DNA of 49,369 bases from a virus, in the IMG/VR virus record IMGVR_UViG_3300018079_000007, one strand, 5' to 3'. Numbering within the stretch: the first letter of the stretch is position 1; every line of letters begins with the position of its first letter. Shown piece after piece: positions 3,366 to 49,369 of the stretch. The notes beneath the pieces are model-generated. The model was not told the origin of the DNA and ran no database searches. It saw only the letters and a program-made list of their open reading frames with translations. The position numbers were made by a program, and so were the translations under genes.

Positions 3366-3673
3366 CTCAATATCTGGTGGGGCAAACGAAACGCATTCAG
3401 GATACGTTCACCAATGCCGCTGGGGTGGTGGCCGATCCGACGACGATCCAGCTTCGCATCGGCGTATACCTGGCAGATGGCTCGGTGGACACGCTGCAAA
3501 CCTACACTTATGCCGCCGCGCAGCTCATCAAAGCCAGCACCGGCGTCTATTACAAGGATTACACCTTTGTCCAGGCCGGGCGGCATGTGTTGGAATTCAC
3601 CACCAGCGGCACGCCGACGACGGTGGACATCCTGGAAATTGATGTGGCGACGCCCTTGACGTGGGTGGCGTAA
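3362..3673 (+). CDS. Hypothetical protein, 103 aa
   Basis: ATGA overlap with the upstream stop and TAATG overlap with the downstream start. Confidence 0.6.
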   Translation: MTQYLVGQTKRIQDTFTNAAGVVADPTTIQLRIGVYLADGSVDTLQTYTYAAAQLIKASTGVYYKDYTFVQAGRHVLEFTTSGTPTTVDILEIDVATPLTWVA

Positions 3674-4764
3674 TGCAGGTTATTGGCAGCAACCGGCCCC
3701 TGGTAATCGCCCAGGCGGGGATGCGCCGTGATAGCACCCGCCTGCTGCGCACGGCAACCCTAAAGGCGCTCGGCACGCTGCTGGCTTATACTGGCGCGGA
3801 TGGCCGGATTCAGGAGCGCTTTGAGCGCCGGGTACAGACCAGTGTCGGCCAAACGATCAGCGACCTGTTTACCGGAGGCGATAACCGCTCCGCCTTCGCC
3901 GAGGACGGTGTGACGGCGTTGGCACCCTACCCGCGCGCGCTCAACTACTGGATCGCCTTTGCCACCTATCAGGCTGTGAAGCAGCAGGAAAATTGGCTGC
4001 GGCGGCATCTGCCGGAGGATGTGTATCACTTCCTGCGCCGGGGACGGCGGACGGTGAGCGAGATCAGCGCCGAGGGTTTGACCGGCATGATCCCGGCGCA
4101 GATTGACCCGCTGCGGCAGTGGGTGCCGCCGCACCGCTGGACGGATGAGCGCGGCTACCGGCTGTCGGATCGCATCTGGCGGACGGACACGGAGACGCGG
4201 CGTAAGATCGACGAGTTGCTGGCGCGCGGCGTCCGTGTCGGCCAATCGTCGTTGAACCTCTCGGCAGCGCTGGAAGCCTATTTACTGCCGGGGCGTAGCG
4301 GCATCCGTACCCTGAAGCCGTATGGATCACGTTACCAGCCGGGCGGCGCATCCTTTGATGCCATGCGCCTGAGCCGGACGGAGATCAGCCACACCTTTAA
4401 TGAAGCCGCGCTCATCAGCGCTCAGATGAATCCGTTTGTGGATCGCATCGACGTGGCGCGCTCGGCTAATGGCGACCCGACCTGCGCCATTTGCCCGCAG
4501 CACGCCACCATCGGCATCAGCGGCGAACGGATCCGGCCACCCTATTCGGTTTACAGCGCCCGAATCGGACCGTTTCATCCGCATTGTCGGTGCCATGTCC
4601 GGCCTGTCGTGGTCGAGGACACAGCGGGTGTGATCGCCGAGTTACGGGCGCTGATCGAAAGCGGCGAAGACATCTATTTGAACCCGGCGGATGACTGGGA
4701 TTTCCTGATCTGGCTCATCGGGCCTGCCCTGGCCGAGTTACTGCGGGAATTGATGGCGGCGTGA
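3673..4764 (+). CDS. Minor head / head morphogenesis protein, SPP1 gp7 (Mu F)-like
   Basis: C-terminal motif GPFHPHCRCHVRPV matches the HPxCRC signature of gp7/Mu F-type proteins. The ATG at 3673 overlaps the upstream TAA. The ORF track's GTG at 3661 is an alternative start. Confidence 0.7.
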   Translation: MQVIGSNRPLVIAQAGMRRDSTRLLRTATLKALGTLLAYTGADGRIQERFERRVQTSVGQTISDLFTGGDNRSAFAEDGVTALAPYPRALNYWIAFATYQAVKQQENWLRRHLPEDVYHFLRRGRRTVSEISAEGLTGMIPAQIDPLRQWVPPHRWTDERGYRLSDRIWRTDTETRRKIDELLARGVRVGQSSLNLSAALEAYLLPGRSGIRTLKPYGSRYQPGGASFDAMRLSRTEISHTFNEAALISAQMNPFVDRIDVARSANGDPTCAICPQHATIGISGERIRPPYSVYSARIGPFHPHCRCHVRPVVVEDTAGVIAELRALIESGEDIYLNPADDWDFLIWLIGPALAELLRELMAA

Positions 4765-5255: not shown

Positions 5256-5288
5256 CTCGCGGCGTGATTGACACGATTTGCAAACATC

Positions 5289-5370
5289 TGTGCTATAATA
5301 CAAAATATATGAAATAAACAGGCGCGGCCTGTATACCCTCTCTTGGGGTGTGCAGGTCGCGTTTTCGTTT
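5289..5370 (+). promoter_or_regulatory. Cassette A: extended -10 promoter motif TGTGCTATAAT (5289..5299) followed by hairpin (arms 5323..5331 / 5353..5361) and T-run 5362..5370
   Basis: Read directly from the sequence. It shares motif and architecture with copies at 13992, 16269, 22983 and 45060. Confidence 0.6.
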
Positions 5371-6982: not shown

Positions 6983-8113
6983 ATGGCAGAAGTTTTGGGG
7001 CCAATGAGTATCGCCCTACGGGCACTCCCCACTGGCGTGGATGGGGTTAAGCTGGCGCAATGGCGACTGCGTGAAGGCGTGACGGTGCAGCAGTTCATCG
7101 CGCGCACAGCGGCGGCATTGGGCGGCATTAATCAGGAATTTGTGCAAAAGTGGGGCTGGTTGTTCTCGATCACCGAGATGGATCATTTCGAGTACCCCGA
7201 CGGCGGGACAGTGACAGAACTGCCGGAAATCACCGACATGGACGACCCGGACATGATGCACGGGACGACCATCGGCCATCAGATCGACCTGCGGCCATAC
7301 GGCGGGGCGATTGGCGGCTCGCGGCGCTATTTCCGGGATGCCCGGCAGCCGCAAATCGAGAGTACACTGCGCGTCATCGTCAACCGGGCGAAGTGGCGCT
7401 TTGAACGCAAGCTGTTCACCCGCCTATTCACCAACACCGAAAACGCGATTGGTGCCAGCGGCTATGATGTGCCGTTTGTGCGTGGCAGCGGCGGCAATGT
7501 CGATTTTGTGCCAGCGGCTTATGGTGGACAAGCCTTCGACACAAGCCATGATCACTTCCTGGGCATCGACAGCGACACCAAACAGCGCGACGAACTCCTG
7601 AACGAGATGGCGGAAACGCTGGAAGAACATGGGCACACCGCGCCATTCACCGCACTGGTGAGCCGCGCTGACGTGGCAGCCTACGCAGTACTGACGGGTT
7701 TTGTTAAGTTCACGGCGGATGTGGTGACGGTGATCGATCGGGGCGCGGAGTCGAGCGGCAACCAACTGTTCGCGCGCGGCACGCCGATGGTGACGGATGG
7801 CGCATTCGGCTACTTCCAGAGCGATTATGGGCTGATCGAACTGCGGGCTTACAACCGGGTTCCGGCCAACTACGGCGCGATGGTCAAGAGCTACGGCCAA
7901 CTCGACCAGCGCAACTCGATTGCAGTGCGCGTCCATCCCGACGAAGGCTTCGGGCTGGCGATTATGGCCGAGAAGACCGGTGATGACAAATACCCGCTGA
8001 AGAAGCTGAACATCGAATTCGAGTTCGGCGTGAGCGTGGGCGAAGACCGTACCAATGGCGCGGCAGCCTTCCTGGATGCCACTGGCAACTGGACGAATCC
8101 CTCCATTGGGTAG
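6983..8113 (+). CDS. Major capsid protein candidate, 376 aa
   Basis: RBS GGGGAGG, typical size and typical position after the scaffold and decoration genes. It is followed by a strong intrinsic terminator. Confidence 0.65.
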   Translation: MAEVLGPMSIALRALPTGVDGVKLAQWRLREGVTVQQFIARTAAALGGINQEFVQKWGWLFSITEMDHFEYPDGGTVTELPEITDMDDPDMMHGTTIGHQIDLRPYGGAIGGSRRYFRDARQPQIESTLRVIVNRAKWRFERKLFTRLFTNTENAIGASGYDVPFVRGSGGNVDFVPAAYGGQAFDTSHDHFLGIDSDTKQRDELLNEMAETLEEHGHTAPFTALVSRADVAAYAVLTGFVKFTADVVTVIDRGAESSGNQLFARGTPMVTDGAFGYFQSDYGLIELRAYNRVPANYGAMVKSYGQLDQRNSIAVRVHPDEGFGLAIMAEKTGDDKYPLKKLNIEFEFGVSVGEDRTNGAAAFLDATGNWTNPSIG

Positions 8114-8139
8114 CCGGACAATCCTCGTTTGACGTTCTA

Positions 8140-8166
8140 GGGGAGGGTTTGAAACCCTCCCCTTTT
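8140..8166 (+). terminator. Intrinsic terminator after the capsid gene
   Basis: Perfect 8-bp stem GGGGAGGG / CCCTCCCC (8140..8147 / 8155..8162), 7-nt loop, then TTTT. Confidence 0.7.
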
Positions 8167-8179
8167 AACCTCACGGAGT

Positions 8180-9184
8180 ATGATGGTTACTCAACTGGCA
8201 GCCGCCCAACTCAACTTCTTTCCCTCTAATCGCATGAACCCGGCCACCGGCTATGGCCGTATGGAACTCGGCCTGGTCAAAGGACTGACCGGCTTCGGTG
8301 TGCAGGTGTGGATGGTGGATAGATGGACGCCACCCAAACACGCCGTCACCATCATCAGCGGATCGCCGGAATGGGGCGAGGATGTGCCGGGGCGCAAGTG
8401 GGCCTTCACCATGAGCGAGAGCAACCGCGTCTCCCGCTTGTGGGTGGACATCCTGAACGCCGATTTTGAGCGGGTGCTGGTGGCTTGTCCGCCGCTGGTG
8501 GACATCTACCGCGAATCGGGACTAACCATTCCGGTGGATTATGTGCCGTTGGGTGTGGATTACCGGCCACCGTATTTTGTGCCACGCGATCCTCATCCGC
8601 CGCAGTTCACCTGGTTGACCTACAGCCTGGGCGACATGCGTAAGGGCGCCGACCTGGCGATCATGGCCTTCAAGCGGCTGTGCGGCGACGATCCCCGCTA
8701 CCGGCTCATCATCAAATGCCGGGATGCGGCACAGTGGCTGACCGGCCTGGACGATCCACAAATCAGCCTGGAACAGGGACAAATGAGTGAGCCGGAGTGG
8801 CATGACTTGCTGGCGCGCTGCCAGGCGATGATTTTCCCCAGCCGGGGCGAAGGCTTCGGCTATCCGCCCAGAGAAGCGGTATTGAGCGGACTGCCGGTGG
8901 CCGCGACGCAGGCGCTGGGTATGTGGGATGTGGAAAAGTGGGGTTATCCCATCGCTGTGAAAGACATGCGTCCCTGTCAGTTTGATTATTATGAAGCCAA
9001 CGACGAGGCCGGGCAGTGGTGGGAGCCGGATCGGGAGTCAATCGACGCGCAGATGAAGGCGGTGATGGCCGACTATCGGGCGGCGCTGGCAAAAGCAGCA
9101 GCGGGGCGCAAATACCTGCTGGAGTATTTCACCTGGGAACAGGCGGCGCGGCGGATTGAGGAGCTGCTATGCGAATCGGCCTAA
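8180..9184 (+). CDS. Glycosyltransferase, GT-B fold, GT4-like (retaining type)
   Basis: EX7E-type motif EGFGYPPRE, followed by AVLSGLPVAATQ in the C-terminal half. Confidence 0.7.
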   Translation: MMVTQLAAAQLNFFPSNRMNPATGYGRMELGLVKGLTGFGVQVWMVDRWTPPKHAVTIISGSPEWGEDVPGRKWAFTMSESNRVSRLWVDILNADFERVLVACPPLVDIYRESGLTIPVDYVPLGVDYRPPYFVPRDPHPPQFTWLTYSLGDMRKGADLAIMAFKRLCGDDPRYRLIIKCRDAAQWLTGLDDPQISLEQGQMSEPEWHDLLARCQAMIFPSRGEGFGYPPREAVLSGLPVAATQALGMWDVEKWGYPIAVKDMRPCQFDYYEANDEAGQWWEPDRESIDAQMKAVMADYRAALAKAAAGRKYLLEYFTWEQAARRIEELLCESA

Positions 9185-9933
9185 TCGTGGTGGCTTATGG
9201 ATTGGCGGAAGATTTAGTACTGCTGTTTTCGCGCTCCGATTCATCCAAAGTCCACTGGTATCTTTTCCTCCACAGCCAGGTAGAGGAAGTGGTAGCGGTA
9301 TGTGAGCGCCTGGCAGCCCGCCCCAATGTCCGCTACTACCCCTATGGCGAGAACCGGGGATTGGCAAAATCCTGGAACGAGGGCTTGATCGACGGCTACC
9401 ATGACGGCATGGATGTGATGTTGATTGCCAACGACGATGCTGCGCCACAGTATGGCGACGCCACCCGGATCGCGCGGGCGGCAGCCCGCAATCGGGATTA
9501 TTACATGGTCAGTGGGTGGGGCTTCGATGCACGCGCGCTGCAATCCGGTGACATGCTGTTTTCGCTGGCGGCGATCAACCCCGTTGCACTCGAAAAGATT
9601 GGGTATTTCGACGAAAATTTCTATCCGATTTATTACGAAGATAGGGATTATTATCGGCGGGCGCAGTTGGCCGGACTGGGACACATGTGTATTCCATCAA
9701 CCCACATCCTGCACGCTGGCAGCAAGAGCCGGAGCATAGTGCCCATCCAACAGCACGAAGAACAGTTTGAGCGGAACAAAGCCTATTATCTGCGAAAATG
9801 GGGTGGCGAGAAGGAATACGAACTGTTTGAGACACCGTTTAATGATCCGGCACTCGGTTGGAAAATCCGAACGAATGAGCGAAACGCGCCCTATCCAGGG
9901 TATAATCGGATGGATCGGGAGGCGGCGGGCTGA
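9169..9933 (+). CDS. Glycosyltransferase family 2-like protein, 254 aa
   Basis: The N-terminal strand IGLIVVAYG, NRGLAKSWNEGL and the acidic motif IANDD fit a GT-A fold. Confidence 0.55.
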   Translation: MRIGLIVVAYGLAEDLVLLFSRSDSSKVHWYLFLHSQVEEVVAVCERLAARPNVRYYPYGENRGLAKSWNEGLIDGYHDGMDVMLIANDDAAPQYGDATRIARAAARNRDYYMVSGWGFDARALQSGDMLFSLAAINPVALEKIGYFDENFYPIYYEDRDYYRRAQLAGLGHMCIPSTHILHAGSKSRSIVPIQQHEEQFERNKAYYLRKWGGEKEYELFETPFNDPALGWKIRTNERNAPYPGYNRMDREAAG

Positions 9934-10922
9934 TGCGAATTCTGGTCACAGGCGGCGCAGGTTTCATTGGCGGGCATTTGGTCGGCAGGCTGCTGGACGA
10001 TGGGCATACGGTGCATATTGTCGATAATCTGTCGAGCAACCCGATACCAATGGCACGGCTACTGAATGAGATAGGGAACGCGGCCATTTCAGCTACCGTC
10101 TTTCAAGAAAGCATTGAAGTGTTCAGTTTGTATCAACAACCGCTGTATCGACGCGCACGCTACGACGCGATTTTCCATCTGGCCTCGCCGGTGGGGCCAG
10201 CCGGTATCCTGCCGCACGCGGGTAAGATTATACAGCAGGTGGTGAGCGACGCCTATCGGGTGATCGACCTGGCGAAACACAACGGCGCGCGACTGATTGA
10301 CGTATCGACCAGCGAGGTGTACGGCGGCGGCCAGGATGGGCTATGCAGCGAGGACATGCGCAAACACATCCCGGCGCAGATGACGGCGCGAGTCGAGTAT
10401 GCCGTAGCGAAGCTGGCGGCAGAGGCCGCCATTCTGAACAGCGCCGACCTGGATGCGCTGATTGTGCGCCCGTTTAATGTCGCTGGGCCGCGCCAGAGTG
10501 CCAAAGGCGGATTTGTACTGCCGCGATTTGTCGGGCAGGCCATGCGGGGCGAGGCGCTGACGGTGTTCGGCAGCGGGATGCAAATACGGGCCTTCACCCA
10601 TGTGCGCGACATCGTCGATGGGATGGTGCGGGCCTGGGAAAGAGGCCGGACGGGCGCGGTTTACAACCTGGGCAACCCGGCGAATACCACCACCATCCTT
10701 GATCTGGCGCAGCAGGTGATGGCGGTCATCGGCCAGGGTGAGGTCGTGTTCACGAATGGCAAGGCGATTTATGGGCCGCAATATGCCGAAGCCGATGATA
10801 AATATCCCGATTCGAGGAAAGCCGAAACCGAACTGGGTTGGCAGCCGAGTATCGGTATCCGGGCGACGATCCGGGATGTGTACGAGTATGAGCAGGCGAA
10901 AGAGGCCGAATTATGCCGATGA
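9933..10922 (+). CDS. NAD-dependent sugar epimerase/dehydratase (extended SDR)
   Basis: Rossmann motif VTGGAGFIGGHL at the N-terminus and catalytic YAVAK (YxxxK). TGATG overlap with the upstream gene. Confidence 0.8.
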   Translation: MRILVTGGAGFIGGHLVGRLLDDGHTVHIVDNLSSNPIPMARLLNEIGNAAISATVFQESIEVFSLYQQPLYRRARYDAIFHLASPVGPAGILPHAGKIIQQVVSDAYRVIDLAKHNGARLIDVSTSEVYGGGQDGLCSEDMRKHIPAQMTARVEYAVAKLAAEAAILNSADLDALIVRPFNVAGPRQSAKGGFVLPRFVGQAMRGEALTVFGSGMQIRAFTHVRDIVDGMVRAWERGRTGAVYNLGNPANTTTILDLAQQVMAVIGQGEVVFTNGKAIYGPQYAEADDKYPDSRKAETELGWQPSIGIRATIRDVYEYEQAKEAELCR

Positions 10923-12014: not shown

Positions 12015-12393
12015 TTTCGGCACCTACCTGGGCTGGAACCCCAGCGGCGACCTGGAAGAATGGTACCGCCAGTCGGAACGCGCCGACTCGGTGGCCTTTA
12101 TGATCGGCCACCGGGGGGTGAGCCTCGCAATTGTGCGCGGCGATGAGACGCTGGATGCCCAGTCGGTGATCCTGGCCCCCGCCGGACGGGACACCACCGC
12201 CAGCGAACGCAAGAGCGAATCAGGCAGCGGCGCTTATGAGCAGCTCTTGATCGTCGGCCAGCCGGATTTGGATATTAAACGCGGCGACCTGTTCAAGTAT
12301 CCATCCACAGTGGCGCGGCTGAATTATAAGGTGGTGCGGGTGGAGCGAACGTTACACGGTATGGTGCAGGCGTATGCCGAGGAGACACAATGA
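12007..12393 (+). CDS. Candidate head closure / head-tail adaptor protein, 128 aa
   Basis: Size and position upstream of the tail completion genes. No diagnostic motif was seen. Confidence 0.4.
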   Translation: MPDFGTYLGWNPSGDLEEWYRQSERADSVAFMIGHRGVSLAIVRGDETLDAQSVILAPAGRDTTASERKSESGSGAYEQLLIVGQPDLDIKRGDLFKYPSTVARLNYKVVRVERTLHGMVQAYAEETQ

Positions 12394-12743
12394 GCGCCGA
12401 GATGCAATGGACGGGTATTAGTGAGATGCAAGCGCGGCTGGAAGACTATCGCCGCCGCTGCCGTCTGGCGCTGCATCTGATCGCTGAATACTACGCGCCG
12501 GTTGTTGAGGCGGCAGCCAAAGCCGATGCCACCTGGACGGATCGCACCGGCAACGCTCGGCAGGGGCTGACCGGTTTCGTCAAAGACTTGAGCGAAACGT
12601 CGGTGGCGATTTATCTGGCGCACCGGATGGATTACGGCCTGTATTTAGAACTGGCGCATCAGGCGCGCTATGCCATCATCCTGCCGACGCTGGAGCAGCA
12701 CTACCAACCCGTGATGGATATGGTGCGGAAGGTGTTCAGTTAA
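12390..12743 (+). CDS. Candidate tail completion protein (HK97 gp10-like), 117 aa
   Basis: The position and the TDRTGNARQGL segment resemble gp10-type proteins. The call is tentative. Confidence 0.4.
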   Translation: MSAEMQWTGISEMQARLEDYRRRCRLALHLIAEYYAPVVEAAAKADATWTDRTGNARQGLTGFVKDLSETSVAIYLAHRMDYGLYLELAHQARYAIILPTLEQHYQPVMDMVRKVFS

Positions 12744-13189: not shown

Positions 13190-13199
13190 AGCGAAAATC

Positions 13200-13254
13200 T
13201 GTGCTATAATTGAGGGAGAAAAGGAAACTCCGACGGTGCGCAAACACCTCGGAG
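13200..13254 (+). promoter_or_regulatory. Homing-endonuclease leader 1: TGTGCTATAAT (13200..13210) plus 5' UTR hairpin CTCCGA...TCGGAG (13228..13254)
   Basis: Read from the sequence. It is homologous to the leader at 15365..15410. Confidence 0.55.
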
Positions 13255-13274
13255 CATGAGCAACCATAAGAAGG

Positions 13275-13967
13275 ATGGCTACTGTGAGTAATGATACTCC
13301 AATTTCAGGCATATATGTTATCCTCAACGTAAAAACCGGCAAAGTCTACATTGGGCAAACGCAGGATTTTCGCAGGCGGTGGCACAAACATAAGACCTAT
13401 TTAAAGGGCGGTTATCACGAAAATCGACACCTGCAACATGCTTGGAATAGATATGGTGCGGATGCGTTCCGTTTTCAAAAACTAGAATATTGCGCTATTG
13501 AACAATTAGACGAACGAGAACAACACTTCCTTGACATCTACATGGCGAAAGGAATGTGTTACAACATCGCCAAAGATGTACAGGCATCAGGGCGCGGACT
13601 AATTCGCAGCGAGGAGACACGGCGAAAACTTAGCGAAGCCGTCATGGGTAAAAATAACCCCAACTTTGGGAAACCCAAAAGCGAAGAGACACGGCGTAAA
13701 ATGAGTGATGCGCAAAAGGGACGAATCCTGAGTGATGACCATGTGCGCAAGCTGAGTGAAGCCGCTAGAAAACGTCCTCCTGCAAGCGAAGAAACGCGCC
13801 GCAAATTGAGCGAGGCTGGCAAAGGTAAAATTCAAAGCGAAGAAACATGCCGGAAGAAAAGTGAACAGCGAAAAGGCGTGATATTTAGTGAAGAACATAA
13901 ACGGAAATTGAGCGAAGGTGCAAAACGGCGTTACGCAAAGGCGCGAAAGCTGTCTGAGGATGAATAA
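13275..13967 (+). CDS. GIY-YIG homing endonuclease with NUMOD3-type repeats
   Basis: GIYVILNVKTGKVYIGQT at the N-terminus. Five SEETRRKLSEA-like repeats sit in the C-terminal half. The gene is lower in GC than its flanks and lies between structural genes. Confidence 0.85.
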   Translation: MATVSNDTPISGIYVILNVKTGKVYIGQTQDFRRRWHKHKTYLKGGYHENRHLQHAWNRYGADAFRFQKLEYCAIEQLDEREQHFLDIYMAKGMCYNIAKDVQASGRGLIRSEETRRKLSEAVMGKNNPNFGKPKSEETRRKMSDAQKGRILSDDHVRKLSEAARKRPPASEETRRKLSEAGKGKIQSEETCRKKSEQRKGVIFSEEHKRKLSEGAKRRYAKARKLSEDE

Positions 13968-13991
13968 AGTGTTTCTTTAGAACCGAATACT

Positions 13992-14056
13992 TGTGCTATA
14001 ATATTATCAATAACAGGGCGCGGCCCGTCGAGAGACGAGCCGCGCTTTTCGTTTTT
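13992..14056 (+). promoter_or_regulatory. Cassette B: TGTGCTATAAT (13992..14002), hairpin GCGCGGC/GCCGCGC (14018..14045), T-run 14046..14056
   Basis: Read from the sequence. The hairpin is nearly identical to that of cassette C. Confidence 0.6.
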
Positions 14057-14130
14057 AGAGTGAAAGGCAAATCATCATTCCTGGGAGCAGCGAATTCGGC
14101 GAAGTATCCTACACTTTAACCGATTTACTG

Positions 14131-14679
14131 GTGGCAGCTTACAATATTACTGCCAATACTTATGGAACCCCTATCTCGGCGGCCATCGGGCAGACGTTGG
14201 AAGTTGACCCGGAACACGACACGGATAAGCTGCCGGGTTACGGCGTAACCATGCGCCTGCTGTCGGTGGCGCGCGGGGCCAAAATCAAAATCGGTATGGG
14301 CGGTGTCGATGTCGATTTCCTGGCCGTCACCGCCGGGGTGTCGAATTACACCAGCAACCTGACGCCCAACCAGCGGCGGCGTACCCGTTTCCCGGCGGGT
14401 GGCGCAGGTTTGCCCTACTTCGGCGCGATTGGCTTGACGCCTACCGACGACGGCGGCGTGGCGGCCATCGGCTTGCAGGGGTGTAAGTTGGATAAGTATC
14501 CCAAATACACCGCCGACGGCAAAACCAACAAATTCAATATGTCCGAGATCGAGGGTTATGCCATCCCGGTTGCCATCAGCAGTGTGTTGTACCTGATGAC
14601 CGTGCGCACCTACGAAACGGCGGCGCTGTGGACAGCCCCGGCCAGTGGCGCCGACTTCCTGGCTTTCTTCGCGGCATAA
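14131..14679 (+). CDS. Major tail (tube) protein candidate, 182 aa
   Basis: Its size and its position upstream of the chaperone and tape measure genes fit a tube protein. The GTG start has a weak RBS, so the start is uncertain. Confidence 0.55.
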   Translation: MAAYNITANTYGTPISAAIGQTLEVDPEHDTDKLPGYGVTMRLLSVARGAKIKIGMGGVDVDFLAVTAGVSNYTSNLTPNQRRRTRFPAGGAGLPYFGAIGLTPTDDGGVAAIGLQGCKLDKYPKYTADGKTNKFNMSEIEGYAIPVAISSVLYLMTVRTYETAALWTAPASGADFLAFFAA

Positions 14680-15359: not shown

Positions 15360-15364
15360 CGCGG

Positions 15365-15410
15365 TATAATAGAACAAATAAGTTACCCCTGCGTGCGACA
15401 ACACCAGGGG
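15365..15410 (+). promoter_or_regulatory. Homing-endonuclease leader 2: TATAAT (15365..15370) plus 5' UTR hairpin CCCCTG...CAGGGG (15386..15410)
   Basis: Read from the sequence. Its loop and downstream sequence are homologous to leader 1. Confidence 0.5.
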
Positions 15411-15430
15411 CTTGAGTATCCATTACAAGG

Positions 15431-16258
15431 ATGGCTACTGTGAATAATGATACCACACCCCTCAAGCGCTGCACGGGATGCCAACAGTGGAAACCCGCAA
15501 CACGGAAATATTTTCACAAACATAGCCAAACAAAAGATGGCTGCCGCCAACCGTGTATTGAGTGCCGCCATATTCAAAGCCTTGAAGATGGCGAAGCTGC
15601 GAATGAGCGCGCCCGTATATCCTGGGAGAAGCATAAAGATAGAGTGAATGCCGAGAGGCGCGCTCATCCCGAAAAGCATCGAGAACAAAGCAGATTGTGG
15701 CGTGCAGCGAATCGGGAAAGGGTTCGCAAAATTAAGCGTGATTGGTATTATGCGAACCGAAATAAGGTGCTTGCGGCGCAGAAAAAATATCAGGAAGCTA
15801 ACCCCGAAAAGGGGCAGGTGATTCGGCGGCGTCACTATTTACTTCACCCCGAAGCCTATAAATATCAGGCGCAAAAGGCCAAACATGAACGGCGGGCAAT
15901 TGAACGAAATTTAGGCAGCGATCTCACGGAAGATCAATGGAAACGCTGCTTGGATTATTGGGGCGGATGCTGTGCAGTATGCGGGCAGATTGCAACCGGA
16001 CTCTGGACAACAATAGCAATGGATCATTGGATCGCTATCAAAGACCCGCGACCCGATAACCCCGGCACAACAGTTGGGAACATAGTTCCCTTATGTCACG
16101 GGAAGAGAGGGATTCCAGCGGGCAAATCCTGTTGCAACCAATCCAAAAGCAATAAAGACCCGGCTGCGTGGCTAATCGAGCGCCTCGGCAAACGGAAAGC
16201 AAAGCGGAAATTAGCCGAGATCGAAGCCTATTTTGAGTGGGTGAAAAGTCAACCGTAA
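15431..16258 (+). CDS. HNH homing endonuclease, 275 aa
   Basis: C-terminal CAVCGQ...AMDHWIAIKD...GNIVPLCHG (H-N-H) and an N-terminal Cys-rich zinc-finger-like segment. It is free-standing between structural genes. Confidence 0.8.
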   Translation: MATVNNDTTPLKRCTGCQQWKPATRKYFHKHSQTKDGCRQPCIECRHIQSLEDGEAANERARISWEKHKDRVNAERRAHPEKHREQSRLWRAANRERVRKIKRDWYYANRNKVLAAQKKYQEANPEKGQVIRRRHYLLHPEAYKYQAQKAKHERRAIERNLGSDLTEDQWKRCLDYWGGCCAVCGQIATGLWTTIAMDHWIAIKDPRPDNPGTTVGNIVPLCHGKRGIPAGKSCCNQSKSNKDPAAWLIERLGKRKAKRKLAEIEAYFEWVKSQP

Positions 16259-16268
16259 CCCAAACATC

Positions 16269-16331
16269 TGTGCTACAATTAAAGCATCCACAGGGCGCGG
16301 CCCGTCGAAAGACGAGGCCGCGTTTTTATTT
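16269..16331 (+). promoter_or_regulatory. Cassette C: TGTGCTACAAT (16269..16279), hairpin CGCGGCC/GGCCGCG (16296..16322), T-run 16323..16331
   Basis: Read from the sequence. Confidence 0.6.
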
Positions 16332-16340
16332 GGGGTGCGT

Positions 16341-19010
16341 ATGGATTTTGGCAGTGAGGGCTATTCGTTAGGTACGGCTTATGGCCGAATAGTCTTAAGC
16401 CTTGATGACTCGGCGGTTCAGAACGCGCGCCAATCCATCGGCGGCGGCTTGCAAGACCTGGGCGGCGCAATCTCCAGCATCGGCTCCAGCCTGACGCAGT
16501 TAACCGCGCCGGTGCTGGCCTTCGGCCTGACCGGGCTGAAAGCTGCCAGTGATTTCGATACCGTCATCAACCAGATACGAGTCTTTGGCGAACTCGGCCC
16601 GCAAGACCTGGAACGGGTGCGGCAGGCGGCACTCAAGTGGGGCGCGGATACCAAGTTTAGTGCGTTGGATGCCAGCGCCGGGATGCTCGACCTGCTCAAG
16701 AGTGGTCAATCGGTTGAGCAGGCGATGGCGACCATGCCAGCCGTCCTCAATTTGGCGGGCGCGGGCAACCTGAATTTGGCACAAGCGGCAGGAATCACCA
16801 GTTCGGCTTTGGCACAGTTCAGGTTGAAGGCTGAGGATGCTGGACGGGTAGCCGACGCGCTGTCACGGGCAGCCAATGCCAGCCGCGCCGAGGTTGGCGA
16901 TCTCGGACTAGCGATGGGTAATGTGGGGCCAGTTGCCGCACAGTACGGACTCAGTATCGAGGATGCCAGCGCGACATTAGCCGTCTTTGCTCAGAACGGC
17001 ATTATGGGCGCAGAAGGCGGAACACTCCTTAAAACTGTCCTGACCCAAATGACCCGTCCCACTGAAGAAGCGGCTGGCGCATGGAAAAAACTTGGTCTTA
17101 GTCTGTACGATGCCAATGGCAATACCCGCGATTTCAACACGGTTCTAGGCGAACTCGATACTGCCCTCGATAAGCTGCCCGTCGAAGAACAAAATGAAAT
17201 CATGTACCAATTGGCAGGCAGCTTCGGCATCACCGGGCTGAATGCTTTACGGGCAGCCGGTGGTATCGGCGCGATGCGCGACCAAATGGCAGCCGCGCCG
17301 GATGCCGCGACGATTGCCGCTGAGTTCATGAACACCTTCGCCGGTAAGGTCGAGTCGCTGACGGGATCGATCCAGACTTTACAGATCGAAGCCCTGACGC
17401 CGCTGATGAATGATGTCCTGGCGCCGATGGTGGACAAGCTCATCGGCGTGGTCAACAGCCTGACAGCCTGGATACAAGCCAACCCGGAACTGGCAGGGCA
17501 AATTACGCAAATCCTGGCCGTGCTGGTGGTGGTCGGGCCAACACTCCTGATTATTGGCAAAGCAGTTTCGGCAGTGGGCGGCCTGTTCAGCGGCCTGGGG
17601 ACGATCCTGGGGCTGGTGCTGTCGCCCATCGGCCTGATTATCGGCGCGGCGGCGCTGTTGTTTCTGGCCTTCCAAACAAATTTCCTGGGTATCCGTGACA
17701 TCCTGCAACCGGTGATTGAAACGATTGTAAACGCCGTGCAATTGGCGGTAATGGGCTTTAGTAGTTTTACCGACATTTTGAATGATACCGGCAGCGTGGT
17801 AGATGCCATTGTTGGATCACTTTCCAGCGGAATTGCTAACTTCCTGGTCGGGTTGGGCGTGATTCAAAATCCCGAACAGTTTTTAGCCTTCCGTCAAGCA
17901 ATTGAAGATGCACTGGGAGGTGTAGTCAGTTTCATTCAAGAAGTAGTCATCCCCATTGTCGAGCGCTTCGTCGGCCTGCTGGTTGACTTCTGGACAGCGA
18001 TCCAGCCGGGGTTACAGGCGTTCGCCAACTGGGTGATCGCGGACGTGCTGCCGCTGGTGGTGGACTTCTTCAATACCATCTTGCGCCCGGCGGTTGAAGG
18101 CATTGTCAATATGCTGATGGACATCTGGGAAGTCGTCAGCCCGGCGCTGTCGGCCTTATTCAACTGGTTCATGGCCGAGGGACTGCCCTGGATTACCGAT
18201 GCGCTGCGCTGGTTCATGGAGAATGTATTACAGCCTGCCATCACTCTGCTTCAGGGAATATGGGAAGCGGTGGGGCCGGTGCTGCAAGATGTGTTTGACT
18301 GGTTCGTGACGACGGCGCTGCCCAAAATTAACGAGGCGGTGGTCTGGTTCAAAGACAATGTATTACAGCCCGCCGTCGATATTCTGGAAGGCTTATGGAT
18401 CGTTATCGAGCCGGTGTTAGCCAAAGTCTACGACTGGTTTGTGACGACGGCGCTGCCCAAAATTAACGAGGCGGTGGTCTGGTTCAAAGACAATATCATC
18501 ACCCCACTTGTCACGCTCATCAGCGGCTTATGGGAAGCTATCCGGCCATCGCTGGAAAAGGTCTATAACTGGTTCCGTGACAGCTTCCAATGGATTGGCG
18601 ACACCTTTATCAAACCAGTGGTCGATTTCATTCAAAAAATTATTGACGGCGTAGGCAATGCCCTGCGGGAATTGGAGAAACTCGGCGGCGGCGGCGGTGT
18701 ATCGGTCGAGGGGTCGGGTGGCACGCCAACGGCGGCCAGTCTCGGTATCCAGTTTCGCGACTCTGGCGGGGCGGGCATGGCCGATGTGCCCTATCTGATT
18801 GGGCGTGGCGCGCAGCCGGAACTCTTTATCCCCAACAGCAACGGCACTTTTATCCCGAATGCCGACAAGCTGCTGGGCGCGGGTGGCGGTGGCGGCGACA
18901 CCATCATCCTGCAAGTGCCGATTGAAATGCTGCGGGATGAGCCGAACTTAGAACGCAACGCCAGAACCTTCGCCGAGAAATTTGCCGACGCGAAAAGGAG
19001 TATGGGATGA
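16341..19010 (+). CDS. Tape measure protein, 889 aa
   Basis: It is the longest late gene and lies after the chaperone. It has hydrophobic segments and 45-aa internal repeats. The ATG at 16341 has better RBS spacing than the GTG at 16335. Confidence 0.85.
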   Translation: MDFGSEGYSLGTAYGRIVLSLDDSAVQNARQSIGGGLQDLGGAISSIGSSLTQLTAPVLAFGLTGLKAASDFDTVINQIRVFGELGPQDLERVRQAALKWGADTKFSALDASAGMLDLLKSGQSVEQAMATMPAVLNLAGAGNLNLAQAAGITSSALAQFRLKAEDAGRVADALSRAANASRAEVGDLGLAMGNVGPVAAQYGLSIEDASATLAVFAQNGIMGAEGGTLLKTVLTQMTRPTEEAAGAWKKLGLSLYDANGNTRDFNTVLGELDTALDKLPVEEQNEIMYQLAGSFGITGLNALRAAGGIGAMRDQMAAAPDAATIAAEFMNTFAGKVESLTGSIQTLQIEALTPLMNDVLAPMVDKLIGVVNSLTAWIQANPELAGQITQILAVLVVVGPTLLIIGKAVSAVGGLFSGLGTILGLVLSPIGLIIGAAALLFLAFQTNFLGIRDILQPVIETIVNAVQLAVMGFSSFTDILNDTGSVVDAIVGSLSSGIANFLVGLGVIQNPEQFLAFRQAIEDALGGVVSFIQEVVIPIVERFVGLLVDFWTAIQPGLQAFANWVIADVLPLVVDFFNTILRPAVEGIVNMLMDIWEVVSPALSALFNWFMAEGLPWITDALRWFMENVLQPAITLLQGIWEAVGPVLQDVFDWFVTTALPKINEAVVWFKDNVLQPAVDILEGLWIVIEPVLAKVYDWFVTTALPKINEAVVWFKDNIITPLVTLISGLWEAIRPSLEKVYNWFRDSFQWIGDTFIKPVVDFIQKIIDGVGNALRELEKLGGGGGVSVEGSGGTPTAASLGIQFRDSGGAGMADVPYLIGRGAQPELFIPNSNGTFIPNADKLLGAGGGGGDTIILQVPIEMLRDEPNLERNARTFAEKFADAKRSMG
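17988..18650 (+). repeat. Five in-frame repeats of about 135 bp (45 aa) inside the tape measure gene
   Basis: 18297..18359 and 18432..18494 differ at 1 of 63 nt. The flanking units are diverged (W..V.P.L....NWF pattern). Confidence 0.8.
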
Positions 19011-19885
19011 CCATCTTACAGCGTGTCACCCGGTTTGGGTCGGGATCGCAGGTGTATACCTTCCCAGATACGATCCAAACCCTGAATGGTAATTTTGGCT
19101 CCCTGATTACGCTCACCAGCAAACTGCCGGGGGCGGACGGCGGCTTTGATGAATTCGGCCTGGGGGTTTCACCGGCGGAGATTGGCAAGGTGTCGGTGGA
19201 GTTCACACTGATCAGCGACACGCGCGAAGGTATGACAGCGCTGCGCGATGCGGTTTATAAGATGCGTGGTTTTGGGCGCAAACAACTCTTTATGCAGCCG
19301 TCGGACAATGCCCTGCCGCCGCGCTGGTGCTGGGGGCGCGTCGCTTCGATCCCGATCAACGAAAAAGTGGCGAAACATACCGATTTGTGGCAGCCGGTGA
19401 CGGTTAACTTTCACGTTCCTGACCCGATGTGGTACGCGCAAGGGACAGAAGCGGTTTTGTGGGGCGCTTTTAATTGGGGTGATGGTTCGGTGTGGGGTGG
19501 CACGGCACCGGCCTGGGCGATCTCCGGCGAGCTGACCGATCAAACGGTGACGCCGGTTGGTTCGGCCATCATCCAGCCGCGTATCAAGATTTCCTGCGGC
19601 GCTGGGCAGACCGTCACGAATCCGACCATTCAGCGGGTGGTGAACGGCGAGGTAGTGGATCAGGTGAGCTACACCGGCACACTGGTTGCCAGCGACGTAT
19701 TGGAAATAAACTGCCGCGCCTGGTTGGTCAAGAAGAACAGTGTTGATGCGTATACCAGCGCCTTCAGCTTTCTGCACCCATCCTGGTTCCGACTGTATCC
19801 GGGCGCCAATACAGTTCGCATTCGCTTCGCCAATTCAACCGACGCGGCCACCATCCGCATGTTGTATTTTGAGGGGTATTACTAA
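19007..19885 (+). CDS. Distal tail protein candidate, 292 aa
   Basis: It lies immediately after the tape measure gene (ATGA overlap) and has a typical size. Confidence 0.55.
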   Translation: MTILQRVTRFGSGSQVYTFPDTIQTLNGNFGSLITLTSKLPGADGGFDEFGLGVSPAEIGKVSVEFTLISDTREGMTALRDAVYKMRGFGRKQLFMQPSDNALPPRWCWGRVASIPINEKVAKHTDLWQPVTVNFHVPDPMWYAQGTEAVLWGAFNWGDGSVWGGTAPAWAISGELTDQTVTPVGSAIIQPRIKISCGAGQTVTNPTIQRVVNGEVVDQVSYTGTLVASDVLEINCRAWLVKKNSVDAYTSAFSFLHPSWFRLYPGANTVRIRFANSTDAATIRMLYFEGYY

Positions 19886-22965: not shown

Positions 22966-22982
22966 GCGAAGATACGAAATTT

Positions 22983-23042
22983 TGTGCTACAATAAGAGGC
23001 ATAGGCGCGGCCTGTCGAAGGGGACAGACCGCGTTTTTATTT
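22983..23042 (+). promoter_or_regulatory. Cassette D: TGTGCTACAAT (22983..22993), hairpin (23006..23033, one C-A mismatch), T-run 23034..23042
   Basis: Read from the sequence. Confidence 0.55.
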
Positions 23043-26022: not shown

Positions 26023-26053
26023 AAAAAGGGACGAGATATATCTCGTCCCTTTT
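26023..26053. terminator. Bidirectional intrinsic terminator between the convergent late and early operons
   Basis: AAAAA, then a GGGACGAGAT/ATCTCGTCCC stem (26028..26049), then TTTT. Confidence 0.8.
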
Positions 26054-26058
26054 CGCGT

Positions 26059-33197: not shown

Positions 33198-33225
33198 TTG
33201 ACACAACGAAATTTTGTGCTAATCT
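33198..33225 (+). promoter_or_regulatory. Rightward promoter: -35 TTGACA (33198..33203), 16-nt spacer containing TG, -10 TAATCT (33220..33225)
   Basis: It includes ACGAAATTTTGTGCTA, the same 16-mer found upstream of cassette D. Confidence 0.6.
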
Positions 33226-33247: not shown

Positions 33248-33496
33248 ATGCCAGTGCTGAATCGCTTACCCGCACTGATTGGCAAAAAGCAAAACGAAAC
33301 CAACGCCGTCATCGATGTATCGGCGCTGTCAGAGGCTACGGGTGTGTCACGCACTACGATATACAACTGGCTTGAAGGCAAGATGCGGCGATTTGACGCT
33401 GATACTATCGAGGCTTTCTGTGCATATTTTGGCTGCAATGTCGGCGACCTGTTGATATATGAACCAAAGGAATCGCCGGAGCCGACAAGTAATTGA
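33248..33496 (+). CDS. XRE/Cro-CI family HTH transcriptional regulator, 82 aa (candidate lysogeny repressor)
   Basis: LSEATGVSRTTIYNWLEGK HTH. It is divergent from the early operon and co-oriented with the moron next to the integrase. Confidence 0.7.
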   Translation: MPVLNRLPALIGKKQNETNAVIDVSALSEATGVSRTTIYNWLEGKMRRFDADTIEAFCAYFGCNVGDLLIYEPKESPEPTSN

Positions 33497-43148: not shown

Positions 43149-43267
43149 CCCAATATGGTTAACTTCCGGTTTGAGCGAGTCAAAAAGTTTGTGAAAAAGG
43201 TGAGCAAAGGCTTGTTTCCGGTTAGCAATCCGGCGACAATCGAATGAAGTATTATTACGGAGGGCTT

Positions 43268-43459
43268 ATGTCGCCCTATGCCGAGGTGGTGCTAACAAAA
43301 TTACGCGAGTTGCAGGCCCGACCAGAGAAGCCGGTGCGGGCCGGACTGCTGGCCGAATTGCTGGGGATTGCCCGGCGGACAGTCTGTAAATACCTGATCG
43401 AATTGGAAGCGCGCGGCCTGGTGGCAAAGGCGTCGCCGAAGCGCTGGTGTGTCGCCTAG
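43268..43459 (+). CDS. Winged-helix DNA-binding protein, 63 aa
   Basis: LLAELLGIARRTVCKYLIELEARGLV. The ATG at 43268 follows GGAGGG. Confidence 0.55.
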   Translation: MSPYAEVVLTKLRELQARPEKPVRAGLLAELLGIARRTVCKYLIELEARGLVAKASPKRWCVA

Positions 43460-43607
43460 ACTGCCCTGGGCAACCGAGGCAGTCTATTCAAATAAAGTTA
43501 TTGACGATGTGGGAATTTGTGTGGTATGCTTCCGGTTAACCACATTTTGTCTCCCTCAGACAAAAGTGTTCCCGCAATGCTGACACACTGCGGGAACGGC
43601 GGATCAC

Positions 43608-44099
43608 TTACTCAAAAGCTGTCCAGGTTGGCTCACTCTCTGACAAAGGGAGTGTTGCAACTTGCCGGTAATTCACCGTGTCCCAACTGCCGATCCGCTC
43701 AAAAACGGTCATGGTTTGACGCTCAAGGTCAAACACATATGCCCATTCTTGCCAGCTATCGGTTGTTTGGTCGATGTACGACTCGTTATGCTCTTCACCG
43801 GGACGATATTTGTAGGACAGCGGCGGCAATTTCTTATCCGCTTTATACCACGCACTCCTATCGTCAATCCACGTTGGCCGCAGATTCCAGTCGGCATCGA
43901 TAATGCTTGACCAACCCTGCGGATGGGCGTCGATCAGCATTTCGACCATAGCGGGAAGCAACCCTTCATAAAATTCGTGATAAAGTTGCCACAGTGCCTT
44001 TCCTAAACCGCTGGGATAACCATCAAAATGATGGTAAGTCCCGCGCCACTGGCCTAACTCCCGATTGGTATAGGCCGCTATCACTGCTCGCGTAGACAT
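43608..44099 (-). CDS. Hypothetical protein, 163 aa; the only minus-strand gene inside the rightward operon
   Basis: The ATG at 44099 follows AAAGGAG. Contains a YHHFDGYPSGLGKAL motif. Hairpins lie after the stop (43545..43597). Confidence 0.6.
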   Translation of the reverse strand: MSTRAVIAAYTNRELGQWRGTYHHFDGYPSGLGKALWQLYHEFYEGLLPAMVEMLIDAHPQGWSSIIDADWNLRPTWIDDRSAWYKADKKLPPLSYKYRPGEEHNESYIDQTTDSWQEWAYVFDLERQTMTVFERIGSWDTVNYRQVATLPLSESEPTWTAFE

Positions 44100-44248
44100 G
44101 TTTGCTCCTTTTCCTACGCTTTCGATTAGATATGTAAGGCTTCGTTTCTTTTCTTTCATCACCCTTTGTTGGTAGCGGGGTGGCGATCCCCGTCGTTCTC
44201 TATCTATTCAGTTGTCGTTTCAACCTTACAAATATAAGTATAAAGCAA

Positions 44249-44334
44249 GTCATATGACCTGTGTACCCTAAATACTAGGGGTTCAAGTCAGTTGACATGG
44301 ATTTATGTTTCATGATATATTCAAGTCAGTTGAC
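44249..44334. promoter_or_regulatory. Three CAAGTCA-NN-TGAC operator-like palindromes at 38-bp spacing (44249..44258, 44287..44296, 44325..44334), overlapping a candidate promoter
   Basis: The 18-bp direct repeat TTCAAGTCAGTTGACATG occurs at 44282..44299 and 44320..44337. Candidate promoter: TTGACA 44292..44297, TG at 44313..44314, -10 TATATT 44316..44321. Confidence 0.55.
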
Positions 44335-44352
44335 ATGAATAGAGGTGAAACA

Positions 44353-44796
44353 ATGGCAGTGCCTGGTGAGAACAGCCGCGACATCCCGCTGCGCGTGACG
44401 AAAGAAGGCGACGCGGCCATTGCCAGCGAGGCGGAGCGCTTAAAGACGGAAAAGAATGAAGTGATTCGGATGGCGCTGCGCGACTATTTTAAGAATCGGG
44501 GTCAGGTAATCGAGTTTTCGCCGATGCGAGGAGGCAAGCGAACCCGTATGACTGAGCAGCAAACTTTTGAACGAGTTATCCGCCGCATCCAGGCGTTAGG
44601 ACTGCCTGAACCCCAGGTAGAATACCGACTGCGCCACAAAACCTACGACCTGGCCTGGCCGGATCAATATGTCGCCGTCGAGGTATCGCAGCGGCGACGC
44701 CCGGCGGACACCAATGACTGGACAGTGGGGTACATCAAGCCGACGATGGATGACGGGCAAATTGATAAAGTGTTGAAGGCGCTGCCGCTGTCATAA
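44353..44796 (+). CDS. Ribbon-helix-helix (CopG/Arc-like) regulator fused to a restriction-endonuclease-like (Vsr/DUF559-like) domain, 147 aa
   Basis: The N-terminus IPLRVTKEGDAAIASEAERLKTEKNEVIRMALRDYF fits an RHH pattern. The C-terminal PEPQVEYRLRHKTYDLAWPDQYVAVEV resembles PD-(D/E)xK-type domains. The domain call is tentative. Confidence 0.45.
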   Translation: MAVPGENSRDIPLRVTKEGDAAIASEAERLKTEKNEVIRMALRDYFKNRGQVIEFSPMRGGKRTRMTEQQTFERVIRRIQALGLPEPQVEYRLRHKTYDLAWPDQYVAVEVSQRRRPADTNDWTVGYIKPTMDDGQIDKVLKALPLS

Positions 44797-44870
44797 CCCC
44801 ATGCCCATCCTGGATTAGAACACCTGTACACTAAATGTATGGGTGTTTTTAATTGGAGGAGCGGCAGCCG

Positions 44871-45053
44871 ATGACGTGGGATTTGCAGAAGTTCGATTAT
44901 AAAAGTTACCGGGACGAGTTCACGAAACTGAAGACCAAGACCAGCTTCCAACTGGCGCTGGAGCGGGCTGAACAAACGAAGGCGACCAAGTGGGCGGCCT
45001 ATAAGCAGAATTATGAACGGCAGTACGGCGTGCCGCATGTTCACGCCAACTGA
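44871..45053 (+). CDS. Hypothetical protein, 60 aa
   Basis: The ATG at 44871 follows GGAGGAG. Confidence 0.5.
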   Translation: MTWDLQKFDYKSYRDEFTKLKTKTSFQLALERAEQTKATKWAAYKQNYERQYGVPHVHAN

Positions 45054-45059
45054 GACATT

Positions 45060-45121
45060 TGTGCTATAATTTGTTACATGAAGTGAGCGCGGCTCCCGAT
45101 GGGGCGGCGCTTTTTTGTTTT
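45060..45121 (+). promoter_or_regulatory. Cassette E: TGTGCTATAAT (45060..45070), hairpin (45087..45110, one mismatch), T-run 45111..45121
   Basis: Read from the sequence. It lies immediately upstream of the small terminase gene. Confidence 0.55.
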
Positions 45122-49074: not shown

Positions 49075-49369
49075 CGCCGACTATTTTAGTCCCGCGCCAG
49101 CGCGAAGGTCAGGTGCGCCGCGAAGGGGCAAAGGTGCAAATCATCCTGGAGGGTCGGCTGCTGATGCAGCTTTCCTGGGAAAGCGCCCTGGCGCTGGCGA
49201 AGGAACTGCATCATGTGGCGAAGCTGGCCGAAGAGGAAGCCAACGCCGAAACCATCATTATAGATCAGGCGATTTTGCAACGTTCAGGTTTCCCGATTGG
49301 TCTCGTGACCCGCAGAGACATGGCGTTGCTGGCCGCCAACGAAGCCGCCTGGAACACAAAGCTGCGCCG
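49071..49369 (+). CDS. 5' part of a hypothetical protein gene that continues at 124..199 after the repeat is collapsed
   Basis: ATGA overlap at 49071. The ORF is open to the end of the window. Confidence 0.55.
   Translation, partial: MTPTILVPRQREGQVRREGAKVQIILEGRLLMQLSWESALALAKELHHVAKLAEEEANAETIIIDQAILQRSGFPIGLVTRRDMALLAANEAAWNTKLR
49247..49369 (+). repeat. Terminal direct repeat, copy 2 (identical to 1..123)
   Basis: Base-by-base comparison of both ends shows a 123/123 match. Confidence 0.95.

Follow-up and report, generated by a model that had tools for sequence, protein, structure and literature searches.

The window analysed here is the whole 49,369-nucleotide (nt) stretch of IMG/VR record IMGVR_UViG_3300018079_000007, which belongs to a tailed, siphovirus-like uncultivated phage. 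Both ends of the window are identical (bases 1-124 equal bases 49246-49369), from which it follows that the contig represents a complete genome, assembled either as a circle or with terminal redundancy. We describe a family of short intergenic cassettes on its plus strand, in which a promoter motif is followed at once by a hairpin and a T-run, i.e. by a putative intrinsic terminator, and then by the next late gene. Five full cassettes (A to E) are present. Their coordinates and sequences had been given in an earlier, sequence-only reading of the window and were correct as judged by exact motif matches and by the five copies of a covariance model; a sixth promoter at 13200 had been overlooked. 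The statement that the cassettes mark every late-module boundary was roughly right but overstated.

Cassette A is located before a scaffold-like gene (ATG at 5382). Its promoter (5281-5299, plus strand, as for all cassettes) comprises the A-rich spacer caaacatc and TGTGCTATAAT at 5289-5299, and its terminator (5321-5370) consists of a hairpin at 5321-5361 (-36.7 kcal/mol, z -7.3) and the T-run TTTTCGTTT at 5362-5370. The heptamer GCGCGGC, which recurs in the 5' arm of every cassette hairpin, lies at 5322-5328 within this longer hairpin. Cassette B is found upstream of the major tail protein (tail tube) gene, which extends from about 14077. The promoter (13984-14002) carries TGTGCTATAAT at 13992-14002, and the terminator (14016-14056) is built up from a hairpin with a GAGA loop (14016-14045, heptamer 14018-14024) and TTTTCGTTTTT (14046-14056). 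Cassette C precedes the tape-measure gene (16335-19010) and follows, at a distance of 10 nt, the stop codon of an HNH/EndoVII-type endonuclease gene (15431-16258); its promoter at 16261-16279 contains TGTGCTACAAT (16269-16279), and its terminator at 16293-16331 a hairpin with a GAAA loop (16293-16322, heptamer 16295-16301) together with TTTTTATTT (16323-16331).

Cassette D (promoter 22975-22993 with TGTGCTACAAT at 22983-22993; terminator 23004-23042 with hairpin 23004-23033, heptamer 23005-23011 and TTTTTATTT at 23034-23042) lies upstream of a small open reading frame (ORF) that starts with TTG at 23062 and resembles a membrane protein by eye. The group of small genes after this cassette had been called a lysis cassette; none of the libraries searched returned a homology match for it, so that this name has no homology support. 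Cassette E is situated between the last gene of the rightward early operon, which extends up to 45053, and the small terminase gene terS (45133-45660, ATG at 45133). Its promoter (45052-45070) carries TGTGCTATAAT at 45060-45070, 6 nt past the last early gene's stop codon, and its terminator (45085-45121) a hairpin with an internal G.G mismatch (45085-45112, heptamer 45087-45093) and TTTTTTGTTTT at 45111-45121. The sixth copy, F (13192-13254, plus strand), has a TGTGCTATAAT promoter at 13200-13210 and a different leader hairpin at 13228-13254 without a T-run. It is predicted to drive a GIY-YIG homing-endonuclease gene (13275-13967), which has been inserted past the head-tail genes and ahead of cassette B; where relatives lack the gene, cassette B stands alone at this boundary. 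By its sequence, copy F is a member of the same promoter class and not a full cassette.

The motif TGTGCTAYAAT occurs exactly at 5289, 13200, 13992, 16269, 22983 and 45060, in all six cases on the plus strand and between genes. With up to one mismatch allowed, 0.86 matches were expected from shuffled sequences, and none of 100 shuffles reached six. As the sequence-only reading had recognized, the motif is a TGn extended -10 element. It represents the full consensus TRTGnTATAAT, with the TG one base 5' of the hexamer, and is exact in the six window copies and in about 25 copies from related phages. An alignment of 26 copies revealed no conserved -35 element, and those copies that do have a TTGACA-like string show it at a spacing of 15-20 nt. 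The 26 copies have in common an A-rich spacer, cgAAAcATy, just 5' of the motif, and this spacer is linked to the presence of a terminator.

The position of the transcription start is indicated by promoter copies in relatives that lack a terminator. In three independent cases an ATG is located 6-7 nt past the hexamer without a ribosome-binding site: at L034 11216 (a glycosyltransferase gene), at L009 7770 (a small gene with orthologues in L018 and L020) and at L090 19767. This fits the anatomy of leaderless mRNAs and would place a real transcription start there. The predicted start site is thus upstream of the hairpins. With a start about 7 nt past the hexamer, the hairpin begins at approximately +4 to +15 in every cassette and lies therefore inside the transcript, in agreement with the sequence-only reading. 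The gap between motif and hairpin amounts to 10-22 nt in cassettes A to E and had been put slightly too large, at 12-23 nt. A scan of the late strand for consensus -35/-10 promoters returned site numbers at chance level only; the cassette promoters, having no -35 element, are invisible to it. The sole recognizable promoters on the late strand are those predicted in the cassettes, each with a strong-looking terminator within 70 nt.

The early promoters are of a different type. At about 33.12-33.23 kb there are divergent promoters, which have TTGACA as their -35 element, whereas the late cassette promoters are extended -10 elements without a -35. The early rightward promoter (33198-33225, plus strand) consists of TTGACA, a 16-nt spacer and the -10 hexamer TAATCT and is not followed by a terminator. 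It had been proposed to contain the cassette motif together with a consensus -35. The -35 element is indeed present, but only TGTGCTA and the bases upstream of it are shared. With cassette D it has ACGAAATTTTGTGCTA in common, and the 16 nt at 22977-22992 are identical to those at 33206-33221.

Folding of the predicted transcripts resulted in one dominant hairpin per cassette (-20 to -37 kcal/mol, z -2.6 to -7.3), with the T-run directly 3' of it. The pattern GCGCGGC-N8-36-GCGYTTTT matched four times in the window (B, C, D and E) against 0.04 matches expected. A covariance model built from 19 copies recovered exactly five full copies in the window and a weak, partial match at 13200 (22.9 bits). 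In a model-guided alignment of 24 copies, 90% of the cells hold standard pairs, compared with 34-55% when the partner columns were slid. Compensatory changes affect both partners in three pairs of the inner stem; the outer pairs, being invariant, carry no information on this point. The predicted structure of hairpin and U-run is maintained in evolution.

The two arms of the hairpin behave differently. The 5'-arm heptamer GCGCGGC is invariant in 25 of 25 copies, 13 of which were reached via protein similarity alone. The 3' arm, on the other hand, is variable and shows G.U pairs, register shifts and a G.G mismatch that is kept in the whole E lineage. Even in two terminator-only copies of related phages (L033 and L043, see below), the full heptamer is kept although its first two or three bases are unpaired. 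Since the 5' arm is invariant while the 3' arm varies, and even where it is partly unpaired, the 5' arm seems to be constrained as a sequence, a conclusion that is suggestive rather than proven. It suggests that the terminators may be recognized by sequence, beyond shape alone. A general host-type terminator sequence was rejected as an explanation, because the other terminators of the same genome have stems unrelated to the cassettes. One of them, of the ordinary kind, follows the capsid gene (8139-8177), a bidirectional one lies at 26.03 kb (26029-26055), where the late genes meet the leftward ones, and others are found at 35.9, 41.3 and 43.6 kb.

For a comparison with related phages we fetched about 60 loci via protein similarity. 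A megablast of 11.6 kb against GenBank phages gave no match, and a protein search for cultured relatives with the capsid gene returned only a 25% match to Mycobacterium phage Barnyard. With no cultured relative found in these searches, there was no annotation to borrow. The capsid protein has hundreds of metagenomic homologues. A search with it for close relatives in IMG/VR found nothing, and relatives were reached by an alignment-based search instead.

The cassette is present in a sub-clade of about eight uncultivated relatives, at matching genome positions and at capsid identities of 55-81% to the window. Cassette A was observed in L031 (81% capsid identity), cassettes E, A and B plus a new copy after the tape-measure gene in L033 (64%), E, A and B in L043 (63%), variants of A and B in L034 (62%), A and B in L020 (60%), and E and A in L090 (55%). 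Three further loci end before the capsid gene; of these, L009 contains A, L091 contains E, and L010 contains one copy approximately 2 kb upstream of the portal gene. Hairpin interiors resemble each other among copies at the same gene boundary, and such copies are therefore orthologous. More distant relatives, amounting to about 0.7 Mb of sequence, lack both the promoter motif and terminators of the heptamer type. Promoter and hairpin are thus co-distributed, being both present in the sub-clade and both absent from the distant relatives. The sequence-only reading had set co-conservation of motif and hairpin in related genomes beforehand as a check on itself, and it holds. A pattern scan of metagenomes yielded 39 loci, nearly all of which are chance or unrelated matches; only L096 and L104 resemble true cassettes.

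Some copies are incomplete. Terminators with GCGCGGC and without a promoter are found in L033 (17365-17400) and L043 (16726-16762), in both cases directly before the tape-measure gene, i.e. at the position of the full cassette C in the window. In L049 (8434-8517), which is from the same contig as L018, the 3' arm and T-run of cassette A are deleted while promoter and 5' arm are kept, as seen by comparison with L009 (7984-8064). In the more distant, motif-less relatives, an intrinsic terminator is often located immediately before the ribosome-binding site of the scaffold gene (the 170 nt upstream of this gene were examined in L051/L052, L079, L045, L069 and L073). In some of them a different promoter-like sequence lies upstream of this terminator, e.g. 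TTGTCA-17-TAAAAT in L051/L052. The promoter-then-terminator layout at the scaffold boundary may be older than the conserved sequence. The more distant relatives fall in genome bins of Aggregatilineales and Anaerolineae (Chloroflexota), one of them inside a 273-kb contig; the assignment of a host by way of these bins is only indirect.

Besides the sixth copy, the invariant 5'-arm heptamer, the terminator-only copies in relatives and the neighbouring homing endonucleases (see below) go beyond the sequence-only reading. Taking these features together, we propose that extended -10 promoters and promoter-proximal intrinsic terminators gate the late modules, with read-through regulated by an early phage product. 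We hold this proposal with about equal measures of belief and doubt. Host RNA polymerase with the primary sigma factor would initiate at the -35-independent TGTGC-TAYAAT element, about 7 nt past the hexamer. After a leader of about 4-15 nt, the GC-rich RNA hairpin and the U-run would form an intrinsic terminator at a distance of approximately 40-65 nt from the start; about 10-25 nt would separate it from the start codon of the following gene. Each terminator would halt the polymerases arriving from the upstream module as well as most of those from the cassette's own promoter. Productive late expression would then need read-through, which is the weakest step of the proposal. Most likely, read-through would be brought about by an early product that either makes the polymerase resistant to termination or blocks closure of the hairpin. 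Once this happens, each cassette promoter would supply fresh polymerases to its module.

In L033 and L043 the essential tape-measure gene lies behind a promoterless terminator, so read-through must occur there, be it by leakage or by antitermination. Conditional termination is favoured because the promoter-then-terminator order would otherwise waste the promoter's own output. Regulated read-through is favoured further by the invariant heptamer, which suggests specific recognition. It is also favoured because the early promoters use a -35 element and the late ones do not, an arrangement that gp39 of the Thermus phage P23-45 and AsiA of T4 exploit (PMC3351154, PMC4124052).

Several results weigh against regulated read-through. 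Sequence searches of PHROGs, Pfam and the PDB, covering those early genes of the rightward operon that were judged plausible (33.2-45.1 kb) together with most of the leftward ORFs, gave no match to Q, N, gp39, p7 or any other antiterminator. Among the window, L090, L091, L043 and L034, no early gene is common to all of these cassette bearers. A single loading site would suffice for a processive antiterminator, so that five promoters are left unexplained by that model alone. The leader between hexamer and hairpin is unconserved and contains no conserved -10-like pause element. The contrast between the invariant 5' arm and the variable 3' arm goes back to about six or seven independent events. 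Finally, judging from the deletion described above in L049/L018, at least the terminator of cassette A is dispensable.

The same scans also bear on other kinds of late regulator. Neither a sigma factor nor an RNA polymerase turned up when most early ORFs were scanned against PHROGs and Pfam and a joined rightward query against the PDB. This query, for which the plausible early rightward proteins were joined (with the omission of overlapping ORFs judged spurious, a ParA-like protein and an HNH protein), matched no PDB sequence at E <= 1. Helix-turn-helix proteins are encoded at 33248-33496 and 43244-43459; the latter, a small winged-helix protein, is among the early regions compared common only to the window and L043. 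A 60-amino-acid gene just upstream of cassette E was considered as a clade-wide factor and rejected, having only one other homologue in a set of 5.8 billion proteins.

A more specific form of the proposal would be a so far undescribed antitermination system, in which an early factor, protein or RNA, recognizes the invariant GCGCGGC 5' arm at each dispersed terminator as this leaves the polymerase, blocks hairpin closure and thereby switches all late modules on together, the polymerases being delivered by the paired extended -10 promoters. We put this forward only tentatively and think it rather improbable in this exact form. Other roles were considered and discarded. A start site inside the hairpin, which would let the cassette's own transcripts escape termination, is incompatible with the gap of 10-22 nt, which is too long. 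The leader is too short, AU-rich and unconserved to provide an alternative antiterminator hairpin of the RAT type. Mimicry of CRISPR repeats was rejected because the hairpin interiors differ among copies, and a packaging site or replication origin because the copies are dispersed, in one orientation and at gene starts.

The cassettes could also work without any factor, as leaky attenuators or insulators. A fixed fraction of polymerases would be cut off at each terminator, and this loss together with a fixed input from each cassette's own promoter would set the ratios between modules, with the timing coming from copy number or other control. This is the main alternative and has to be taken seriously, though we doubt it. 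The terminator-only copies of L033 and L043 would be well placed for such a function, as they stand before the tape measure, a low-copy product encoded after the high-copy tail tube gene. An ordinary terminator after the capsid gene, the deletion of the cassette A terminator in L049/L018, the frequent terminator just before the scaffold gene of distant relatives and the fruitless sequence searches for an antiterminator candidate point in the same direction. However, a promoter followed by a terminator discards most of its own output, a cost that the usual order of terminator then promoter avoids while still insulating. The hairpins and U-runs moreover look strong for leaky elements, and a 5'-arm heptamer that is kept even where it is partly unpaired finds no explanation.

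Alternatively, the hairpins might be RNA stability elements that protect the 3' end of the upstream transcript and stabilize the 5' end of the downstream one, with the U-run enhancing translation and termination being incidental. A hairpin within about 4-15 nt of the predicted 5' end and a U-run that directly adjoins the ribosome-binding site in every copy would suit this function. We nevertheless judge it unlikely. Known 5' stabilizers usually tolerate only shorter single-stranded 5' leaders than the approximately 7-15 nt predicted for A, B, C and E, which are over-long in this respect. In addition, a full U-run is unnecessary for stability and is yet conserved in every copy, and terminator-only copies exist.

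A further explanation regards the cassettes as mobile or recombining repeats, spread and homogenized by recombination or by repair linked to homing endonucleases, with regulation being secondary; the stem-loop cassettes of T4-type phages have been proposed to persist in this way. Homing-endonuclease genes indeed adjoin two cassettes of the window (B and C) and two of L090 (A and E), and A-rich spacer, promoter and hairpin occur together as a unit. The sequence-only reading had pointed out the near-identity of the B and C hairpins, which we confirm, though the orthologous B copy of L033 differs. In L033 and L043 the C position is without a promoter and also without an endonuclease gene. This absence and the near-identity of the B and C hairpins make some copying between cassettes likely, possibly during endonuclease-driven repair. 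As the main explanation, however, mobility is distinctly improbable. Cassettes A, B and E occupy the same gene boundaries in phages whose capsids are only 55-65% identical, and these copies are therefore old and vertically inherited. The hairpin interiors are lineage-specific for each position, most copies lack flanking target-site duplications or variable cargo genes, and the order of elements is the reverse of that in the stem-loop cassettes of T4-type phages discussed below.

Equally remote, in our view, is a set of DNA operators, in which GAAAnATyTGTGCTA and/or GCGCGGC would be bound by the phage repressor or a Cro-like protein, so that one protein would silence the early rightward promoter jointly with all late units, comparable to the L5 stoperators described below. 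The 16 identical bases of cassette D and the early rightward promoter, the asymmetric and always intergenic motif in a single orientation, and an A-rich spacer that is conserved beyond the requirements of a -10 element are what one would expect of operators. But the conserved core is exactly an extended -10, so that contacts to sigma explain its conservation, and the variable spacing of 10-22 nt between promoter and heptamer makes a single binding site impossible. The heptamer, furthermore, is part of a hairpin that is transcribed, and there its complement shows the co-variation in register that an RNA stem would show. A small-RNA gene, each unit yielding an RNA of about 40-65 nt that acts as a decoy or regulator, is the least probable explanation and very improbable indeed, since a strong promoter followed by a strong terminator has this anatomy but leader and hairpin interior differ among copies and phages with the heptamer alone constant, terminator-only copies exist, no Rfam family matches, and a position that is invariably just before a ribosome-binding site speaks for control of the gene behind it.

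Among known systems, regulated read-through at promoter-proximal terminators is best compared with phage lambda. There, the constitutive promoter PR' is followed by the promoter-proximal terminator tR' (6S RNA), and only short RNAs are made until the early product Q allows read-through. The analogy, drawn already in the sequence-only reading, fits: in both phages a promoter for the host sigma factor lies at the early/late junction with an intrinsic terminator at once after it, and cassette E is found in that position. Lambdoid Q systems also have a Q-binding element at the promoter and a sigma-dependent, -10-like pause element early in the transcribed region. In contrast to lambda with its single promoter-terminator pair, the window has five, no Q-family protein emerged from the PHROGs, Pfam and PDB sequence searches, the initially transcribed region has no conserved -10-like pause element, and the terminators carry a common invariant heptamer.

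Phage P23-45 has an extended -10 late promoter and terminators within its late cluster, and its gp39 binds RNA polymerase, blocks -35-dependent promoters and antiterminates (PMC3351154, PMC4124052). The window resembles it in having early promoters with a -35 element, late promoters of the extended -10 type only and intrinsic terminators between late genes. P23-45, however, is described with one late promoter, whereas here every terminator is preceded, at 10-22 nt, by a promoter of its own. Sequence comparison revealed no gp39 or gp76 homologue among the joined early rightward proteins; relatives of gp39 are reported to be hard to recognize and to escape sequence searches (PMC4124052).

Two other analogies of the sequence-only reading did not stand up. 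With the promoter-early stem-loop (PeSL) cassettes of T4-type phages, the elements described here share a dispersed, conserved sigma-70-type promoter with stem-loop and ribosome-binding site at gene boundaries, as well as an association with mobile genes. In a PeSL, however, the stem-loop is located just upstream of the promoter (PMC4122927), whereas here it is downstream and inside the transcript. Furthermore, PeSLs flank variable early genes and the present units conserved late modules. The put RNA of HK022, which acts on the polymerase in cis, is made of paired stem-loops and lacks a U-run, in contrast to the single hairpin with a U-run in each unit here, which leaves this comparison unsupported. 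The stoperators of mycobacteriophage L5 are repressor-binding DNA sites without promoter or terminator anatomy. They are likewise asymmetric intergenic repeats in one orientation across an operon, related in sequence to the early promoter region; the conserved parts here, however, are a -10 element and an RNA stem. A literature search on promoter-proximal terminators in phages and on Chloroflexi phages found nothing relevant.

The endonuclease genes of the window show some features of their own. The GIY-YIG and HNH-type genes have a common 5' leader (13211-13290 and 15360-15450), which consists of promoter and hairpin with the loop GUGCG(C/A)(A/C)AACAC, and their products begin with the same residues, MATV(S/N)NDT. 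The same leader hairpin is found at an endonuclease gene of L048 (2429-2520). This shared leader may be a conserved regulatory RNA for mobile genes. In L090, a T5orf172-type endonuclease ORF (9056-9622) lies between cassette E and terS and starts with a duplicate of the N-terminus of TerS.

The large terminase (45578-46933) and portal (46822-48438) genes come after terS, and the head morphogenesis gene is found at 3661-4764. The major capsid gene (6983-8113) is directly followed by two glycosyltransferase genes and a nucleotide-sugar epimerase gene (8180-10922). A GT4 glycosyltransferase after the capsid gene is kept in nearly all relatives, which hints at a possible glycosylation of the virion. 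The neck protein is encoded at 12390-12743 and the distal tail protein at 19007-19885, and a block of leftward genes extends from about 26 to 33.1 kb. In the tail tube ORF no ATG, GTG or TTG is present before 14131 (window 14057-14131). Its homologues begin with MPGTSEF. From 14077 onwards the letters of the window are ATT-CCT-GGG-AGC-AGC-GAA-TTC, which makes AUU (or AUC) the probable start codon. The region 43460-44800 between early and late genes resembles an inserted island. It contains a gene on the minus strand (about 43608-44101), for which a separate terminator is present (43597-43568), and a ribbon-helix-helix-type gene (44354-44796) behind a TTGACA-18-TATATT promoter, which is overlapped by the 18-nt direct repeat TTCAAGTCAGTTGACATG (44282-44299 and 44320-44337). 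No tRNA or tmRNA gene was found in the window, and zero Rfam families matched it at the gathering threshold.

The late control of tailed phages is understood for few model systems, most of which combine a single late promoter with a processive antiterminator, an activator or a new sigma factor. In the present phage, the late modules appear to have each its own strong promoter and then, at once, a terminator with a 5' arm that never varies. At about 80 nt the cassettes are short, they are well defined, and nature provides about 25 variants of them, among which are terminator-only, promoter-only and terminator-deleted ones; they are thus directly testable. If a read-through factor exists, it would be a new tool for switching terminators on and off. 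For the phages of this sub-clade, the arrangement would represent either a distributed version of the lambda PR'-tR' switch or a terminator-specific mechanism of antitermination.

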